A DNA stretch of 64,000 bases from an uncultured Alphaproteobacteria bacterium. GTDB taxonomy: Bacteria; Pseudomonadota; Alphaproteobacteria; RF32; CAG-239. Within the stretch, counting starts at the first letter, position 1, and every line of letters begins with the position of its first letter. The notes below the pieces were generated by a model. The model ran no database searches. It saw only the letters and a list, made by a program, of their open reading frames with translations, and was not told the DNA's origin. The position numbers and the translations under genes were made by a program. This document shows, piece after piece, positions 5,301 through 38,155 of the stretch. The DNA is taken from positions 2,764 to 66,763 of the forward strand of contig CALXLC010000033.1 of the NCBI GenBank assembly GCA_944389095.1. Reading direction: 5' to 3'.

Positions 5301-6582
5301 TATGCAGCAGCGTCAAAAGGATGTCTTGAAACAAAATATAGCCAAGCCGGCAGTCTTTACGGAAGAAATGAAAAAAACGCATACGATTTTGATTCCGCAG
5401 CTGTCGCCGATGCATTTTCAGTTTTTGGAGACGGTTTTTGCCAGCGAAGGATACAAGGTTGCCCAGCTTCCGCGGGTAAGCAAGAGCGCGGTTGAGCTTG
5501 GGCTGAAACATGTTAACAATGACGCCTGTTTCCCGGCTATCGTCGTTATCGGCCAGTTGTTGCAGGCTATTCGCGACGGTAATTACGATACAGATAAAAT
5601 TGCGCTTTTGATTTCGCAAACCAGCGGCGGCTGCCGGGCTTCGAACTATGCCGGGCTTTTGCGCCGGGCGCTGATTCAGTGCAATATGGCGCATATTCCG
5701 GTGATTACCATGAATGTCAGCGGCAATGTGGACAGTCCCGGTTTTATTCCCGGCCGCAAGATTTTGCTGCGCTCTATTATGGCGGGGTGTTACGGTGACG
5801 CGCTGATGCGGATGTTTAATCGTGTCCATCCGTATGAAAAAGTGCCGGGAAGCACGCAGAAGCTGCTTAACCGCTGGGTTAAAATCATAAAAAAGAACTT
5901 AAAAAGCGGCAATATTTTGACGTTTAACCTTAACATGTTCCGGATGATCCGGGAGTTTGACAAGCTGCCGCTGCAGGATGTCAAACGCAAGCCGCGCGTC
6001 GGACTGGTCGGTGAGATTTTGCTGAAATATCATCCCGATGCGAATAATCAGGCCGCCCGGGTTATTGAAAGAGAGGGCGGCGAGGCAGTTGTTCCCGATT
6101 TGATGGATTTTATGCTGTACGGGTTTTATGATCATATCTTTAACTACAAATATTTGCAGGGATCCTGGAAGGCTTATGCCGTCAGTATTTCCAGCATTGC
6201 CCTTTTGGAATTGTGCCGGGGCTCCATGCGTCTGGGCTTTGCCTGCTCCAAACGGTTTGAACCGCCGGTTTTTTTCAAAAATCTGCGCAAAAAAATCCGC
6301 GGGCTGCTGTCTTTGGGGCACCAAACCGGGGAAGGGTGGCTTTTGACGGCCGAAATCGTCGAACTGTTGGAGGCCGGCGTCGATAACGTTTTGTGCATGC
6401 AGCCTTTTGGTTGTTTGCCGAATCATATTACCGGAAAAGGTTTTATCAAAGAAATCAAAAAGCGTTTTCCGAAAGCCAATATTATAGCGGTTGATTATGA
6501 TCCCGGCGCCAGCGAGACCAATCAGATTAACCGCATTAAGCTGATGATGTCTATTTCAAAGCAAGAAGAAAACTTGTCTTAA
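2344..6582 (+). CDS. fused acyl-CoA dehydratase activase-related protein (two BcrAD/BadFG ATPase modules + dehydratase-like/DUF2229-type C-terminal region)
   Basis: 1412-aa ORF. It has two copies of the ASKHA-type phosphate-1 motif (GIDVGSTTVKAVV near the N-terminus and GIDSGSTTIKAVL about 320 residues later) and Cys clusters (e.g. CQGCANHC). Its size is typical of the fused CoA-substrate-specific enzyme activase family. Confidence 0.8.
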   Translation: MTIRTEKLLYLGIDVGSTTVKAVVLDDKENVLFSTYQRHMSEVRKKIISIIGEVIRQFPESKFRLSMTGSGALSLCTRLNVPFVQEVIASSLSIKKLIPDADVIIELGGEDAKLTFLTSGTDLRMNETCAGGTGAFIDQMASFLNMSVNELDELALQYKNIYPIASRCGVFAKTDIVPLINEGCAKSDIAMSIMQAVVNQFIGGLARGREISGKVVLLGGPLAFLKSLRKCFRDTLKLDETTAVLPENAELFVAVGAALHALSCSEQEIDLKETAAALEQLGEENDIQKLPPLFKNKQEKEAFDKRHSQNDVVRFSLEAYEGDAWLGIDSGSTTIKAVLIDDQNRLLYSYYGSNNGDPFHQALKILKEIYGRAKPGLKIKAAAATGYGSALLKAGLRLDIDEVETVAHCQASTFFAPNASFVLDIGGQDIKCMTLKNGVIEKIGLNEACSSGCGSFIENFAKSLNMDMPTFVEAALKAKNPVDLGTRCTVFMNSKVKQAQKEGVSVGDIAAGLSYSVIKNACYKVIKINDVSELGDCIVAQGGSFLNDALLRALEIQVGKPVVRPGLSGLMGAFGVALLAKKRGPENGVKTKLLAPEEIDTLQIKTTNARCQGCANHCMLTITNFGGQKKFISGNKCEKGAGLAKNNKINLCAYKYKRLFEHYQPLPKEKATHGTVGIPRALNMYEDYPLWFTLLTHLGFRVELSAPSSRKMFFSGYDSIPSQTVCYPAKMAHGHIMDLIEKNVDCIFFPCIPREQKEFASQADCYNCPVVTGYPELLAKNISELTEKGIPCFTPFLPLDEKILARRLKSVPLFEGFSSLQLRMAVKRAFVELRRFKKDIREAGVRAVEQLKQNGEYAIVLAGHPYHIDPAINHGIPELINSCGLSVLTEDSVAHLRPNPEALRVRDQWTYHSRLYRAGTFTADSQNLAILQLVSFGCGVDAITSDQLEEIVTSKDRLYAQIKIDEGDNLGPAKIRIRSLLAALKDMQQRQKDVLKQNIAKPAVFTEEMKKTHTILIPQLSPMHFQFLETVFASEGYKVAQLPRVSKSAVELGLKHVNNDACFPAIVVIGQLLQAIRDGNYDTDKIALLISQTSGGCRASNYAGLLRRALIQCNMAHIPVITMNVSGNVDSPGFIPGRKILLRSIMAGCYGDALMRMFNRVHPYEKVPGSTQKLLNRWVKIIKKNLKSGNILTFNLNMFRMIREFDKLPLQDVKRKPRVGLVGEILLKYHPDANNQAARVIEREGGEAVVPDLMDFMLYGFYDHIFNYKYLQGSWKAYAVSISSIALLELCRGSMRLGFACSKRFEPPVFFKNLRKKIRGLLSLGHQTGEGWLLTAEIVELLEAGVDNVLCMQPFGCLPNHITGKGFIKEIKKRFPKANIIAVDYDPGASETNQINRIKLMMSISKQEENLS

Positions 6583-34188: not shown

Positions 34189-34548
34189 ATGAAAGAAGAC
34201 TGGTCTCCGACGGAAATTTTTTCGCCGATTTTGATTGAAAATTATATCAGGTTTGAAACGGCTGCCCAATATATTAAAGCTTTGGAAGAGGGTGCTTCCG
34301 GAGATGTTGTCGTTTCGGCAAAATTTAAAATTTCCAAAGCTTATTTTGAGCAGTTGAAAAATTCTGATAATCAGGCGCCGCTGCTGGGGTTGACGCTTGA
34401 TTATGATGAAAATACGGAAATTCTGACCGTTACCGTCGACGCTTATTTTAAAGAGTTGTATGAAAACAAGATTATGCGTGACGTGGCCTTGAAACAATGC
34501 GAAGACTGTAAAGAGAGATATTCTAAATTTATTTCTCTTGCCGTATAA
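34189..34548 (+). CDS. hypothetical protein, 119 aa
   Basis: ATG ORF 2 nt after the ZIP stop. No family recognised. Confidence 0.45.
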   Translation: MKEDWSPTEIFSPILIENYIRFETAAQYIKALEEGASGDVVVSAKFKISKAYFEQLKNSDNQAPLLGLTLDYDENTEILTVTVDAYFKELYENKIMRDVALKQCEDCKERYSKFISLAV

Positions 34549-34630: not shown

Positions 34631-34718
34631 GGAGAGTTGGCAGAGTGGTAATGCAGCGGATTGCTAATCCGTCATCGTGAATAACGATGCACAGGTTCGA
34701 GTCCTGTACTCTCCGCCA
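34631..34718 (+). tRNA. tRNA-Ser (anticodon GCU)
   Basis: Class II cloverleaf by hand: acceptor GGAGAGT/ACTCTCC, anticodon loop TTGCTAA, variable-arm hairpin CATCGT-GAATA-ACGATG, T-loop TTCGAGT and encoded CCA. A TTGACG-17-TACATA promoter lies at ~34588. Confidence 0.92.
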
Positions 34719-34739
34719 CTTCAAGCCGCCTTTAAAGAA
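34704..34739 (+). repeat. att-like direct repeat, copy 1 (last 15 nt of tRNA-Ser + 21 nt downstream)
   Basis: CTGTACTCTCCGCCACTTCAAGCCGCCTTTAAAGAA, identical to 34880-34915. The flanking bases differ on both sides. Confidence 0.9.
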
Positions 34740-34879
34740 GGCGGCTTTTGTATTGGAGACAGGACTACGCTCAGGAATGCAGGTTCGCCGTGGTCGCTGT
34801 CGCTTCCCTTGCTCACCAGCATTTTCTGAGATGTTGCAGATAAAAAACTGACGAGGGGTCAGTTTTTTACTTAGCCATT

Positions 34880-34915
34880 CTGTACTCTCCGCCACTTCAA
34901 GCCGCCTTTAAAGAA
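34880..34915 (+). repeat. att-like direct repeat, copy 2
   Basis: Exact 36-nt copy 140 bp downstream of copy 1. Similarity to the tRNA stops abruptly 5' of it. Confidence 0.9.
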
Positions 34916-34960: not shown

Positions 34961-35009
34961 TTGACCTAACTATTGGTTTTTTCTAATATAAGAATAGAAC
35001 CAATAGCTA
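34961..35009 (+). promoter_or_regulatory. promoter TTGACC-17-TAATAT bracketed by a 12-bp inverted repeat
   Basis: -35 at 34961-34966 and -10 at 34984-34989. TAACTATTGGTT (34967-34978) pairs with AACCAATAGCTA (34998-35009) at 11 of 12 positions. Confidence 0.45.
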
Positions 35010-35074: not shown

Positions 35075-36328
35075 ATGAATACACGAACAATTTATCCCAA
35101 AATAAACAAACAGTTTTCCTCCCTGAACGCCGGAGCTTTGTTTATGAAAAGAGGCGTTAAAAGGTTGCAGGTTGTCTTCTATCTGGCAAAGGCTCATAAG
35201 AAAAATTTTGATAATATCGCCTGGATTGCTCCGACAAATTATCTGGCAACCGAAGATTATGTTAATGATATTCGCGAGGCCGCGGGGAGCTTGTTTAAAA
35301 AAATCTGTTTTTTTTCTATAGAACATATTTCCCTGGATGATAAAAAATATCTGCAGCTGTATGAACTGGCGGATGCAAAACGCGTCTTTTGCGTGGTTGA
35401 CGAGAGTATTACTATTAAAAATGCCGCTGCCGGACGGACAAAACGTCTGTTGTCCATGAAAAATAAATTTAAATATCGTCTGATTTTATCGGGAACGCCG
35501 CTGACTCAGGGATTGATTGATTTGTATTCACAGACGCAATTTATGGATTCATCCATTTTGAATATGACGGAAACTCAGTTTATGCATAAATTTCTGCCGC
35601 TGTATGTTGATGATTTCGAGGTTTGGAAAAGATGGTCAAATCCAAAGGATGAGGCCAGGCTGGTGCAGATAATCAATCCGTATGTTTTGGTGTGCGAACT
35701 GGAAGATAATATCAAGATAACTTATCATAATCAGGATTTTGATTTGACGCCGGAAGAGGCTGCCGTTTATCAGTTTGAAAAAGAAGCTTTTTTGAAAGAT
35801 CGGGAGCAGGTGGCTTTTTTGCAGGTCGTGCAGCGTTTTCAATACCTCTATACCATTTGCAAGCATAAGGTTGACGCATTGTTTAAATTGGTGAATCAAA
35901 TTCTTGAGCGCAAAGAAAAAGTGATTATTTATACCAAATTTTTGAGTGAAGTTAAGTTTTTTAAGGAAGCAGGCGGGTTTGGCGAGCACAAATTTGTGGT
36001 GATGTCCGGAAATTCTAACAAAGACAAGGCGTTAACCGGGTTTGAACAAAATATTGATATCATGATATGCACATATAAAGTTGAAAGTCCTCGACTTAAT
36101 CTGAAAGGATGTAATAATATAATATATTTCAGTCAGACTTTTGATTATAAAGATAAGCTTCATACACTGACAAGTTTTTATAATAAAGATGTCCTGAATG
36201 TGAATGTTTATGATTTTTGGGTGGGGACAAGGCTGGAAAATTTGATAAAAGATAATTTACATCGCAAGAAAAATGTACTAAGTAATGTATGTAGGATGAT
36301 GTCGAAAGACGAGGCTTTGAAACTATGA
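35075..36328 (+). CDS. minimal SNF2-family-like ATPase/helicase-fold protein with degenerate Walker A
   Basis: SNF2-type motif II (..VVDESITIKN..) and motif III (..RLILSGTPLTQGLIDLYSQTQFM..), and a helicase-C-like half (..KVIIYTKFLSEV..). The motif I position reads ..FMKRGVKRLQ.. instead of ..DEMGLGKT.. RBS AAGGA lies 6 nt before the ATG. Confidence 0.65.
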   Translation: MNTRTIYPKINKQFSSLNAGALFMKRGVKRLQVVFYLAKAHKKNFDNIAWIAPTNYLATEDYVNDIREAAGSLFKKICFFSIEHISLDDKKYLQLYELADAKRVFCVVDESITIKNAAAGRTKRLLSMKNKFKYRLILSGTPLTQGLIDLYSQTQFMDSSILNMTETQFMHKFLPLYVDDFEVWKRWSNPKDEARLVQIINPYVLVCELEDNIKITYHNQDFDLTPEEAAVYQFEKEAFLKDREQVAFLQVVQRFQYLYTICKHKVDALFKLVNQILERKEKVIIYTKFLSEVKFFKEAGGFGEHKFVVMSGNSNKDKALTGFEQNIDIMICTYKVESPRLNLKGCNNIIYFSQTFDYKDKLHTLTSFYNKDVLNVNVYDFWVGTRLENLIKDNLHRKKNVLSNVCRMMSKDEALKL

Positions 36329-37626
36329 AGATTTATACTGACAAAAATGTTTATGAGGCGACTCAGGAACGTATAAAGTTTGCTTTTGATAATTTTGAGA
36401 ATGTTTACGTTTCTTTTTCCGGCGGAAAAGACAGCGGTCTGCTGTTGAGTATGGTTTTGGACTACAAGCGTAAACATAACATTACAAAAAAAATCGGCGT
36501 ATTTCATCAGGATTTTGAAGCGCAATATCAGTTGACGACGGAATATGTCGAGAGAATGTTTGATCAGAATATTGATGATATTGAACCCTATTGGGTCTGT
36601 CTGCCGATGGGATCCCGCTGCGCGGTGAGCAATTATCAGATGTACTGGTATCCCTGGGATGATGAAAAAGAGGATTTGTGGGTTCGGAAAATGCCGGACA
36701 AGCCCTATATTATTAATTTGAAGAACAATCCTTTTGAGTTTTATAAGTATAAAATGGCTCAAGAAGATTTGTATGCCGAATTCGGCAAGTGGTATGCAAA
36801 GCACCATGAAGGGCGGACAATTTGCCTTCTGGGTATTCGCGCCGATGAATCCATTAACCGGTATCGGGCTTATGCAAACACGCGCAAAACATTGATGAAA
36901 AATTCCCAGTGGACAACCAAGATGGATAAGAATTTTTATAATGCGTATCCGATATATGATTGGTCGACCAAGGATGTCTGGATTGCTTACGGCAAAGAAG
37001 GGTATGATTATAACAAAATTTATGATTTGTATTACCGGGCCGGGTTGTCCATCAGTCAGATGCGGGTTTCAAGTCCGTATCATGAAAATGCCAAAGAAAG
37101 CCTGAATTTATACCGCGTGTTGGAGCCGGCTACCTGGGCTAAAGTCGTGTCGAGGGTAAACGGCGCAAATTTTGCCGCCATGTATGGAACGACAAAGCTG
37201 ATGGGCGTGGGCAGAATTACTTTGCCCAAAGGGCATACCTGGCGTTCTTATGTTAAGTTTTTATTGGCAACTTTGCCGGACTCGGTTCGGGAAAATTATA
37301 TTGCCAAATTTAAAACTTCCATCCGTTTTTGGTGGAAGAAAGGTGGTGTTGTGTGTGACGAAGCTCTCAAAGAGCTTGAGGCCTGTAATTATAAAATCCG
37401 GCACAACGGTCGGAGCGGGTATAATAAAAACAAAGACCGCATTTTGTTTTTGGGGACGCCCGACGATACGGATGATATCAAATCGACGATTGATATTCCC
37501 TCATGGAAAAGAATGGCGGTTTGTATTCTGAAAAATGACCATTTGTGCAAGCACATGGGTTTTGCCCAGACTAAAAAGCAAACGATGAGAGAGAAAGAGT
37601 TAATTCAGAAATATAAAAGTCTGTAA
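36325..37626 (+). CDS. PAPS reductase-family PP-loop protein with DUF3440-like C-terminal domain (IbrA-like)
   Basis: PP-loop ..YVSFSGGKDSG.. near the N-terminus and a ~430-aa architecture. The C-terminal ..IPSWKRMAVCILKNDHLCKHMGF.. is as I recall for DUF3440/IbrA. ATGA overlap with the upstream gene. Confidence 0.7.
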   Translation: MKIYTDKNVYEATQERIKFAFDNFENVYVSFSGGKDSGLLLSMVLDYKRKHNITKKIGVFHQDFEAQYQLTTEYVERMFDQNIDDIEPYWVCLPMGSRCAVSNYQMYWYPWDDEKEDLWVRKMPDKPYIINLKNNPFEFYKYKMAQEDLYAEFGKWYAKHHEGRTICLLGIRADESINRYRAYANTRKTLMKNSQWTTKMDKNFYNAYPIYDWSTKDVWIAYGKEGYDYNKIYDLYYRAGLSISQMRVSSPYHENAKESLNLYRVLEPATWAKVVSRVNGANFAAMYGTTKLMGVGRITLPKGHTWRSYVKFLLATLPDSVRENYIAKFKTSIRFWWKKGGVVCDEALKELEACNYKIRHNGRSGYNKNKDRILFLGTPDDTDDIKSTIDIPSWKRMAVCILKNDHLCKHMGFAQTKKQTMREKELIQKYKSL

Positions 37627-37639
37627 ATAAGGATTGAGC

Positions 37640-38155
37640 ATGAAAGATTTTGTAAGTCCCGTATATAATGTTCAGGCTGTGCCGGTGGAGATGGTACAGG
37701 CGAACGATTATAACCCCAACCGGGTGGCTCCTCCGGAAATGAAACTGCTTGAACTGTCAATTTGGGAGGATGGTTTTACCCAGCCGGTTGTTTGTTATCA
37801 TGACAAAGAGGCCAACAAATATATTGTGGTTGACGGTTTTCACCGCTATACGGTTATGAAAACAAGCGAGCGCATTTATGCCCGCGAGCACGGCAAGCTC
37901 CCTATAGTGGTTATTGATAAAGATTTGGGTGAACGCATGGCTTCCACCATTCGTCATAATCGTGCCCGCGGCAGTCACAATGTCGATTTGATGAGCAATA
38001 TTGTGTCCGAATTGCTTGAAATGGGCAAAAGCGACAGTTGGATTTGTAAAAATATCGGCATGTCGGCGGACGAGCTTTTGCGTCTGAAGCAGGTTACCGG
38101 TTTGGCCGCGCTGTTTAAGGACGAAGAATTTTCCCGCAGTTGGGAAGTTAAGTAA
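37640..38155 (+). CDS. ParB/Srx N-terminal-domain protein (IbrB-like)
   Basis: ..ANDYNPNRV.., ..IVVDGFHRY.., ..IRHNRARGSH.. ParB-like nuclease-domain motifs. I prefer ATG 37640, behind AAGGA, over TTG 37634. Confidence 0.7.
   Translation: MKDFVSPVYNVQAVPVEMVQANDYNPNRVAPPEMKLLELSIWEDGFTQPVVCYHDKEANKYIVVDGFHRYTVMKTSERIYAREHGKLPIVVIDKDLGERMASTIRHNRARGSHNVDLMSNIVSELLEMGKSDSWICKNIGMSADELLRLKQVTGLAALFKDEEFSRSWEVK

Follow-up and report, generated by a model that had tools for sequence, protein, structure and literature searches.

We analyzed a 64,000-nucleotide stretch of DNA from an uncultured alphaproteobacterium (GenBank assembly GCA_944389095.1, contig CALXLC010000033.1, positions 2,764 to 66,763 of the forward strand), referred to here as the window, in which three consecutive genes encode an SNF2-like protein and homologs of E. 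coli IbrA (YbdN) and IbrB (YbdM). The genes were defined by open reading frame (ORF) calls and domain searches:

35075-36328, + strand: gene 1, SNF2-like protein, 417 amino acids (aa)
36325-37626, + strand: gene 2, IbrA/YbdN-type protein, 433 aa
37640-38155, + strand: gene 3, IbrB/YbdM-type protein, 171 aa counted from the ATG

An earlier note on this DNA, prepared by reading the sequence, had described the three ORFs as an operon, and their positions confirmed this arrangement: genes 1 and 2 share an ATGA stop/start overlap (36325-36328), and genes 2 and 3 are separated by 13 nt. Proteins of the IbrAB/YbdNM kind were already known; in the literature, we came across no account of the SNF2-containing trio as a system or of a chromosomal form in which the SNF2 protein is predicted to be ATPase-dead, and publications on DUF3440, IbrA/IbrB and ybdN/ybdM yielded no mechanism. 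Homologs carry the annotation label "co-activator of prophage gene expression", and IbrA and IbrB have been called prophage regulators, with no mechanism given (PMC4490671, PMC8813620).

Gene 2 matched Pfam DUF3440 at 255.7 bits (cutoff 25, E-value 3e-76) over 180 of 182 profile positions and PAPS_reduct at 46.2 bits (22.5, 6.8e-12), and was assigned to phrog_2302 (PAPS reductase, 5.5e-115) in PHROGs. When its AlphaFold2 (AF2) model (predicted local distance difference test, pLDDT, 81) was searched with Foldseek, the N-terminal ~240 residues matched CysH, CysD, the PAPS domain of FAD synthase and TtuA. The Pfam scores, the Foldseek matches and the following motif all agree with the earlier assignment of gene 2 as an IbrA-like PAPS-reductase PP-loop protein with a DUF3440 region:

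36418-36435, + strand: PP-loop SGGKDS, residues 32-37 of gene 2, invariant in alphaproteobacterial, phage and E. coli YbdN sequences

Conservation was scored over alphaproteobacterial, Firmicutes-phage, Flavobacterium-phage and E. coli YbdN sequences. In addition to SGGKDS, the invariant residues were D63/E65, R172/E175/S176/R179 and Y208/D212/W213, and the Arg, Glu and Asp residues of the PAPS-reductase family were invariant alongside the PP-loop. In the PP-loop superfamily, an intact PP-loop means cleavage of ATP between the α and β phosphates, which points to adenylyl transfer or substrate adenylation. No Cys was invariant in the IbrA alignments, which makes Dnd-like sulfur chemistry by this protein unlikely; the missing Cys residues also set IbrA apart from Fe-S-dependent thiolases. 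A separate observation concerned three viral loci in IMG/VR (L111, L116 and L158), in which the last ~60 residues of DUF3440 were encoded by a distinct gene of 85-91 aa located 5' of IbrA. These genes matched Pfam DUF3440 (3e-8), contained the segment ...PS[YW]K/RxxCxxILKND... and adjoined shorter IbrA genes, suggesting that DUF3440 is composed of at least two modules.

Gene 3 was also assigned as proposed previously, as an IbrB-like member of the ParB/Srx group. It scored 27.8 bits against Pfam ParB_N (cutoff 26.3, E-value 2.7e-6), belonged to phrog_2159 (ParB-like, 2.3e-78), and shared 49% identity with E. coli YbdM and 51-66% with phage IbrBs from three phyla. Two motifs were located as follows:

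37832-37846, + strand: DGFHR motif, residues 65-69, the equivalent of ParB/Srx box II, with D65, G66, H68 and R69 invariant
37952-37972, + strand: RHNRARG motif, residues 105-111, invariant in 9 of 9 aligned IbrB/YbdM sequences

More generally, NxYNPNxVA, VDG[FY]HR and RHNRARGxH were invariant in the IbrB alignment, YbdM included. This pattern resembles an active site more than a mere DNA-binding surface. The tail that follows the N-terminal ParB domain is a predicted helix-turn-helix, judged from the segment SDSWICKNIGMSADELLRLKQ. IbrB additionally matched phrog_498 (4.9e-11), which comprises ParB N-domains fused to phage DNA methyltransferases.

Gene 1 matched Pfam SNF2-rel_dom at 37.8 bits (gathering threshold 24.9, E-value 1.5e-9) and was placed in phrog_62 (DNA helicase, 3.8e-40). 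Its AF2 model (pLDDT 80) was a complete two-lobe SNF2 core, which gave template modeling (TM) scores of 0.64-0.68 to the motor cores of ISW1, CSB and INO80 in Foldseek. The reading of gene 1 as an SNF2 protein with a helicase-C-like half was thus upheld by the SNF2 domain and the two-lobe fold, but the Pfam Helicase_C score (19.9 bits) lay under the cutoff of 23.5. Alignments revealed one retained and two degenerate helicase motifs:

35153-35167, + strand: degenerate motif I, residues 27-31, GVKRL (G[TS]GKT in the phage and Listeria proteins)
35399-35422, + strand: retained motif II with the SNF2-type KN, residues 109-116, DESITIKN
36164-36190, + strand: degenerate motif VI, residues 364-372, TLTSFYNKD (R(R)xxRxGQ in homologs)

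Residues D109, K115 and N116 were invariant in the SNF2-like alignments, as were motif III and several residues of the C-terminal lobe. The RxxRxGQ of motif VI was aligned with TSFYNKD in the window protein, and the motif I segment was variable across the window clade. In a pairwise alignment with the Listeria protein, the two SNF2 partners aligned end to end, and both losses were again seen in the window protein. A census of motifs I (GxGK[ST]) and VI, carried out as a pattern test over all loci collected, found both lost in the window and in all 76 alphaproteobacterial genomic copies. Both were present in 27 of 31 phage, prophage and IMG/VR copies; the remaining four each missed one motif by this test, and one of these was cut at a contig end. 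The six chromosomal copies from Opitutales and Holosporaceae had both motifs, and so did the Listeria copy. Homologs of ~410-420 aa numbered 279, and among the 120 best database homologs of gene 1, 112 were without both motifs and seven had both. The SNF2-like protein of the window clade is therefore predicted from its motifs to be ATPase-dead, a pseudo-ATPase maintained by selection; an active SNF2 ATPase is not supported, and the earlier note had missed both losses.

Homologs of the three proteins were detected on phages, plasmids and chromosomes. Searches with tblastn matched 223 phage records for gene 2 and 582 for gene 1, and ~7,500 IbrA/IbrB-type relatives were present in the protein database. 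Adjacent and co-oriented trios were found in Lactobacillus phage phiAQ113 and Streptococcus phage Pika, and the CHPC phages of S. thermophilus encode homologs of genes 2 and 3 that are annotated as IbrA/IbrB. The trio was also present in Flavobacterium phages FCL-2 and FCV-1. In FCV-1, the gene order was SNF2-ParB-PAPS and the genes were located between the large terminase and portal genes, so the linkage in phages survives a change of gene order. Relatives of IbrA occurred on 726 plasmid records, for example pLVPK, which carries the pair without SNF2; E. coli K-12 likewise has ybdN-ybdM as a pair alone. In the Listeria monocytogenes chromosome, the order was hypothetical protein-SNF2-DUF3440-ParB-S-adenosylmethionine (SAM) methyltransferase-DUF2785, between pyrH/frr and tkt, and lmo1309 and lmo1310 are core-gene loci in this species (PMC7020466). 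The Listeria locus (L170) came from a 407-kb record of L. monocytogenes NCTC7974 named "plasmid 6", which carries the core chromosomal genes dxr, cdsA, uppS, frr, pyrH and tkt; this PLSDB plasmid entry is evidently a piece of the chromosome.

As a rule, phage and Listeria trios resembled that of the window: their three proteins match those of the window in kind and size, and the genes usually follow one another in the window order and overlap. They differed in that their SNF2 proteins possess the GxGKT and RxxRxGQ motifs, both of which were lost in the window clade, and the Listeria trio differed also by the SAM methyltransferase and DUF2785 genes downstream. Co-conservation of the three genes, on which the earlier proposal depended, was accordingly found in phages, in Listeria, at 80 genome loci and at viral loci. 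The trio is a recurrent module, the three-gene form of the IbrA/IbrB (YbdN/YbdM) family, and circulates in phages.

We further checked the neighborhoods of 80 IbrA-anchored loci in IMG/VR. IbrB was adjacent in 77 of them, and an SNF2-like gene was located immediately 5' in 26; the IbrA/IbrB pair was alone in 51 loci, which contained other accessory genes. One such accessory was an unannotated family of 120-166-aa proteins, present in 37 of the 51 pair-only viral loci (L095-L168, e.g., L095 5396-5809) and never in SNF2-containing loci. It has the motif W..WE..KNG...NR[KV]AW[IL]G[HQ]AA, had no Pfam or PHROG match, and appears to be an alternative third component. The IbrA/IbrB pair thus has interchangeable third partners, either an SNF2 motor or this ~140-aa unannotated protein, and in some loci an EctC-like cupin. 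Another small ORF, of ~86-107 aa, overlapped the start of the SNF2-like gene in FCV-1, an alphaproteobacterial prophage, Holosporaceae and Opitutales (L003 3837-4160; L086 9751-10017; L073, L074 and L078-L081), and a small upstream ORF was present in 13 of the 26 SNF2-containing IMG/VR loci. It accompanies the active-type versions of SNF2, did not clearly resemble the upstream ORF in Listeria, and, in contrast to many viral, Opitutales and Holosporaceae trios, has no counterpart in the window or its clade; it was not retained as a fourth gene of the module.

To place the window copy among chromosomal ones, one genome per GTDB species was scanned, which gave 80 loci from 80 species. Nearly all were uncultured gut Alphaproteobacteria (CAG:495-like, Ca. 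Scatocola and metagenome-assembled genomes labeled "Azospirillum sp."), together with a few Opitutales and one Holosporaceae, and the order SNF2→IbrA→IbrB was found at every locus where the contig allowed. Approximately 25 species shared the synteny mutL-ZIP-[tRNA-Ser]-trio-(AKR)-lpxK-waaA, AKR denoting aldo-keto reductase, and the window accordingly has genes for MutL, a ZIP transporter, an aldo-keto reductase, LpxK and WaaA as flanks. In at least 17 other species, the trio was located beside a flgI, Mur ligase, OmpA-like or ABC-F gene, those next to flgI forming a second syntenic group, and the Opitutales copies adjoined genes for a P-type ATPase and an aminotransferase. These neighbors are housekeeping genes, and no defence island was found among them.

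Across the syntenic species, identity to the window proteins was 82-91% for IbrA and 85-92% for IbrB, compared with 74-83% for MutL, ~70% for WaaA and 42-76% for the SNF2-like protein. Ratios of nonsynonymous to synonymous substitution rates (dN/dS) against the nearest relative, L004, were 0.029 for the SNF2-like gene, 0.014 for IbrA and 0.011 for IbrB, versus 0.032 for mutL and 0.068 for waaA. The marked AT-richness reported in the earlier note (25-37% G+C (GC) inside versus 55%) proved overstated: the three genes do lie below their flanks, but with GC values of 0.370 (gene 1), 0.417 (gene 2) and 0.467 (gene 3), where mutL, lpxK and waaA have 0.49-0.50. The same gradient, SNF2 < IbrA < IbrB ≈ genome, was seen in other species as well, at loci of 36-50% GC. 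As it tracks the host, it reflects protein composition and long residence and not recent transfer, and horizontal acquisition as an explanation of the AT-richness was rejected. The synteny, the conservation above that of MutL, the low dN/dS and the host-tracking GC together indicate that the window trio is an old, vertically inherited resident under strong purifying selection. A homolog of gene 1 with intact motifs, P0113, is 48% identical to it and is located in a prophage, next to genes for a holin, an amidase, an integrase, two DNA methyltransferases, GapR, DUF4942 and a Tad2-like protein. Because of this prophage homolog, the trio is assigned a phage origin; it has been a fixed chromosomal operon since the ancestor of the gut alphaproteobacterial lineage.

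The region 5' of the trio contains several further features:

34631-34718, + strand: tRNA-Ser(GCT), predicted by ARAGORN, part of the conserved genomic context and outside the module
34740-34898, + strand: structured element, conserved and separate from the trio; the second tRNA-end copy forms its 3' strand
34961-34989, + strand: promoter-like site TTGACC-17-TAATAT, 5' of gene 1, matching the consensus at 9 of 12 positions
34970-34978 and 34998-35006: perfect 9-bp inverted repeat CTATTGGTT / AACCAATAG, bracketing the -10 hexamer of the putative gene 1 promoter
34189-34548, + strand: 119-aa ORF (orf119), between the ZIP-transporter gene and tRNA-Ser

The promoter described in the earlier note is present, but as a 9/12 match that is barely above what shuffled sequence gives (15 such matches in the region versus 9.7 ± 3.1 in shuffles). 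The 9-bp inverted repeat listed above could be an operator. It was kept, together with the promoter-like site, in the closest relative L004 only; the upstream regions of other species were not alignable, the repeat was unrecognizable there, and no conserved operator or target site 5' of the trio was found across the species' upstream regions. The duplicated 3' end of tRNA-Ser noted earlier ~160 nt before gene 1 is real: an exact 36-nt repeat, consisting of the tRNA 3' end and 21 downstream bases, occurs at 34704-34739 and 34880-34915, its second copy ends 159 nt before the gene 1 ATG, and no exact repeat of this length is expected by chance. A third copy was not found, and both copies lie 5' of the cassette with none downstream.

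The second copy belongs to the structured element, which alignment and RNAalifold resolved as a three-way junction. Pairing of its 5' segment, UGGAGACAGGA, with the second copy of the tRNA end gives a tRNA-acceptor-like stem that ends in GCCA, and compensatory double changes were observed in 12 of 49 predicted pairs across six species. In the window and six other species, a junction TTAGCCATT|CTGTACT follows the tRNA-Ser 3' end at a distance of ~130-180 nt (~177 nt in five of the six others), and one locus, L048, has two tandem units of the element. With a covariance model, full-length copies (168-183 bits) were detected only directly after tRNA-Ser, and weaker copies at other sites, one of them abutting a tRNA-Val; no Rfam family matched. 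The ~160-nt element could represent either a tRNA-linked small RNA not described before or a miniature, att-flanked (CIME-like) element. A tRNA-Ser was located directly 5' of the trio in 14 of 14 syntenic species scanned for tRNAs. This tRNA neighborhood was not present at the trios of the flgI group, Opitutales, phages and Listeria, and in other clades the structured element shows no link to the trio. In L004, an insert of ~850 bp (5627-6475, - strand) that encodes a 282-aa reverse-strand ORF replaces the second tRNA-end copy (equivalent to window position ~34850), between the element and the trio promoter, which indicates strain-level turnover at this site. The small orf119 (GC 0.383) was conserved in the closest relatives L004-L006 only and had no family match in a profile search; it was not counted as part of the module.

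We compared the trio with known systems. Of these, E. coli IbrA/IbrB and YbdN/YbdM are the same in kind: a PAPS-reductase PP-loop protein with DUF3440 is followed by a ParB-N protein of ~170-210 aa. The earlier likening of genes 2 and 3 to this pair was borne out, as window IbrB shares every invariant motif with YbdM and the DUF3440-bearing IbrA shares SGGKDS and the other invariants with YbdN. YbdN/YbdM and the window trio are, moreover, both chromosomal copies of a module otherwise found on mobile elements. Unlike the window locus, ybdNM of K-12 is without an SNF2 gene and has a dedicated LysR repressor, CitR (PMC9068703); IbrAB is known by eib activation only, and such a target was not identifiable at the window locus.

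The Dnd system offers the next likeness, as DndB and DndC also combine a ParB-superfamily protein with a PAPS-reductase-family PP-loop ATP pyrophosphatase acting on DNA. However, the DndC model TIGR03183 gave gene 2 only 24.7 bits against a cutoff of 290.4, DUF3440 is not found in DndC, and DndC has a characteristic Cys dyad (PMC10853773) where IbrA has no invariant Cys. DndA/IscS, DndD and DndE are absent from the window locus, which, as the earlier note stated, also has no methyltransferase or nuclease partner; for want of both invariant Cys residues and partner genes, Dnd-like sulfur chemistry was rejected. The Dpd system combines an enzyme that modifies DNA bases with DpdB, a ParB-like NTPase that assists it, and with an SNF2-type helicase, DpdE (PMC12839542), whose models gene 1 weakly matches (24.6 bits). 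This similarity is limited to generic helicase motifs; the window SNF2 protein is one third the size of DpdE and predicted inactive, and the locus has no tRNA-guanine transglycosylase (TGT)/DpdA, DpdC or QueC. A closer analog for gene 1 is DndH, whose SNF2 C-terminal domain is inactive, without ATP-binding residues and arginine fingers, and has been proposed to bind DNA (PMC10853773). That domain is a second lobe only, within a giant multidomain restriction protein, whereas the window protein is a stand-alone two-lobe core. In PADLOC-DB, gene 1 was a partial match to ZorD and DpdE, gene 2 to DndC and BrxP, and gene 3 to no model. The ZorD model scored 43.5 bits over 263 of 908 positions, in the generic motor region only. 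Gene 1 thus had no full-length match to the SNF2 component of Zorya (ZorD), Dpd (DpdE) or DISARM (DrmD). These models gave no system-level match for the trio, in agreement with the earlier view that it lies outside catalogued systems.

We consider it possible, at roughly 40%, that the trio is an adenylation-based complex acting on DNA. The three proteins would form a DNA-associated complex, in which IbrB, through its ParB/Srx N-domain and helix-turn-helix, would bind DNA and a nucleotide and position IbrA. As a PP-loop ATP pyrophosphatase, IbrA would adenylate a target oxygen, most likely of a DNA base or the backbone, and the adenylated oxygen would then be replaced by a nucleophile; because IbrA has no conserved Cys to carry sulfur, this nucleophile would be one other than sulfur. 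The SNF2-fold subunit would grip duplex DNA. In phages, Listeria and Opitutales it would be an active translocase that spreads or exposes target sites. In the window lineage, where ATP binding and the arginine fingers are predicted to be lost, the fold could still bind DNA and would persist as a scaffold. In the cell, DNA would probably acquire a heritable mark or an altered state, with consequences for gene expression or for the handling of foreign DNA; this would fit the switching on of silent E. coli prophage genes by IbrAB.

DNA modification, an option raised in the earlier note, thus remains the best reading, albeit not by a Dnd-like sulfur route, given the missing invariant Cys residues. 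Several analogies lend it support: the fusion of ParB N-domains to phage DNA methyltransferases; the pairing seen in DndB/DndC and DpdB/DpdA (PMC10853773, PMC12839542); the inactive SNF2 domain of DndH (PMC10853773); and the location of phage PAPS-reductase genes at hot spots for anti-defence (PMC13551039). Piel et al. (2022) reportedly described a PAPS reductase by which a phage evades Dnd. Vibrio phages were not among the listed hosts of IbrA matches, so that enzyme may represent a different subfamily. A wider proposal, which we put forward as tentative, is that IbrA-IbrB with an SNF2-fold, small-protein or cupin accessory may constitute an undescribed ATP-dependent, sulfur-independent, adenylation-based machine for nucleic-acid modification. 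Phages and plasmids would alter their own DNA with it, for counter-defence or expression control, and it would have been domesticated repeatedly, as E. coli ybdNM, as Listeria lmo1309-1310 and in the gut alphaproteobacterial lineage, there with a dead, DNA-binding SNF2 protein under strong selection.

Several observations weigh against a DNA-modifying role. The literature names no substrate, product or modified base for any IbrA/IbrB protein, and the DUF3440 half of IbrA had no relative in the PDB by sequence profile or Foldseek. IbrB had weak matches to SbnI and SerK, and DGxHR ParB/Srx proteins of its type include small-molecule and protein kinases. A small-molecule pathway would also fit the SAM methyltransferase at the Listeria locus, as well as the EctC-like cupin (Pfam Ectoine_synth, 2e-40), which is encoded between IbrA and IbrB in ~10 viral loci (e.g., L100 7299-7682). 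Finally, a conservation pattern like that of housekeeping genes is unusual for DNA modification systems, and in E. coli the citrate-lyase genes share their regulation with ybdNM (PMC9068703).

The best-surviving alternative, which we regard as doubtful yet worth serious attention, is a module that remodels transcription or the nucleoid without covalent DNA modification and relieves the silencing of particular genes. IbrB would bind, and perhaps spread on, DNA; the SNF2-fold protein would contact DNA or, like RapA, RNA polymerase; and IbrA would serve as a nucleotide-dependent switch. This would agree with the sole known phenotype of the family, the activation of prophage eib genes by IbrAB in E. 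coli, reportedly from Sandt et al. 2002. A regulatory role would be in keeping with the strong vertical conservation at housekeeping loci, DNA binding is possible for an ATPase-dead SNF2 protein, and ybdNM is itself repressed by CitR and under the control of CitR and H-NS (PMC9068703). A pure switch is, however, hard to reconcile with the retention of all ATP-pyrophosphatase catalytic residues in IbrA from phages, plasmids and bacteria; lytic phages carry the module between terminase and portal genes, and no conserved operator or target site turned up upstream.

An enzyme pathway with a target other than DNA, such as tRNA or another RNA, a protein or a small molecule, is unlikely. IbrB would then be an Srx/SerK-like phosphotransferase and IbrA an adenylyltransferase, as the SbnI and SerK matches, the cupin in viral loci, and the methyltransferase and DUF2785 genes 3' of the Listeria trio would allow. 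Among PP-loop relatives, TilS, TtuA and TtcA have tRNA substrates, and a tRNA with a tRNA-like element is located directly 5' of the trio in one clade. Against this, that neighborhood is missing in the flgI group, Opitutales, phages and Listeria, two of the three proteins have folds for handling DNA (an SNF2 duplex-DNA motor, and ParB with a helix-turn-helix), and phage ParB N-domains usually occur joined to DNA enzymes.

We judge it quite improbable that the trio is an anti-phage defence or toxin-antitoxin (TA)-like system that senses or marks invading DNA, as the earlier note's "defence module" had it. Such a role would draw on the weak partial similarities of gene 1 to ZorD/DpdE and of gene 2 to DndC/BrxP, on the frequency of IbrA relatives in plasmids and phages, and on the listing of lmo1309/lmo1310 as candidate core-genome TA loci by guilt by association (PMC7020466). 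However, no nuclease or other effector is present, gene 3 has no PADLOC-DB model, and the neighbors are not defence islands. Conservation of IbrA and IbrB above that of MutL, with dN/dS of ~0.01-0.03 (0.011-0.029 for the three genes), is the opposite of arms-race behavior. The motor has been inactivated in the window clade, and the presence of the module in phages, lytic ones included, suggests a function that serves the element rather than host defence.

The last proposal, a recently acquired "tRNA-targeting islet" at tRNA-Ser bounded by the duplicated tRNA 3' end, is highly improbable: the exact repeat and the lower GC of gene 1 would suit it, but both copies of the repeat lie 5' of the trio, and the repeat is part of a different ~160-nt element that follows tRNA-Ser in no fewer than seven species; it was discarded as an island boundary. 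No integrase was present among the window ORFs, the tRNA-then-trio arrangement and the flanking synteny recur in many species, with the trio at the same site in ~25, and the GC offset is family-wide and tracks host GC.

IbrA/IbrB-type pairs are very common, E. coli K-12 included, and a biochemical function is recorded for none of them. The SNF2 form has been kept over long evolutionary time in a gut lineage despite the loss of its ATPase motifs, and this retention, the interchangeable partners and the missing Cys residues together narrow the hypotheses. Listeria, E. coli, and the phages of Flavobacterium and S. thermophilus are tractable organisms in which the chemistry could be found. If the trio does carry out a new DNA modification, it would be relevant to the conflict between phages and hosts, to epigenetic marks in gut bacteria and to the interpretation of modification calls made from sequencing data.

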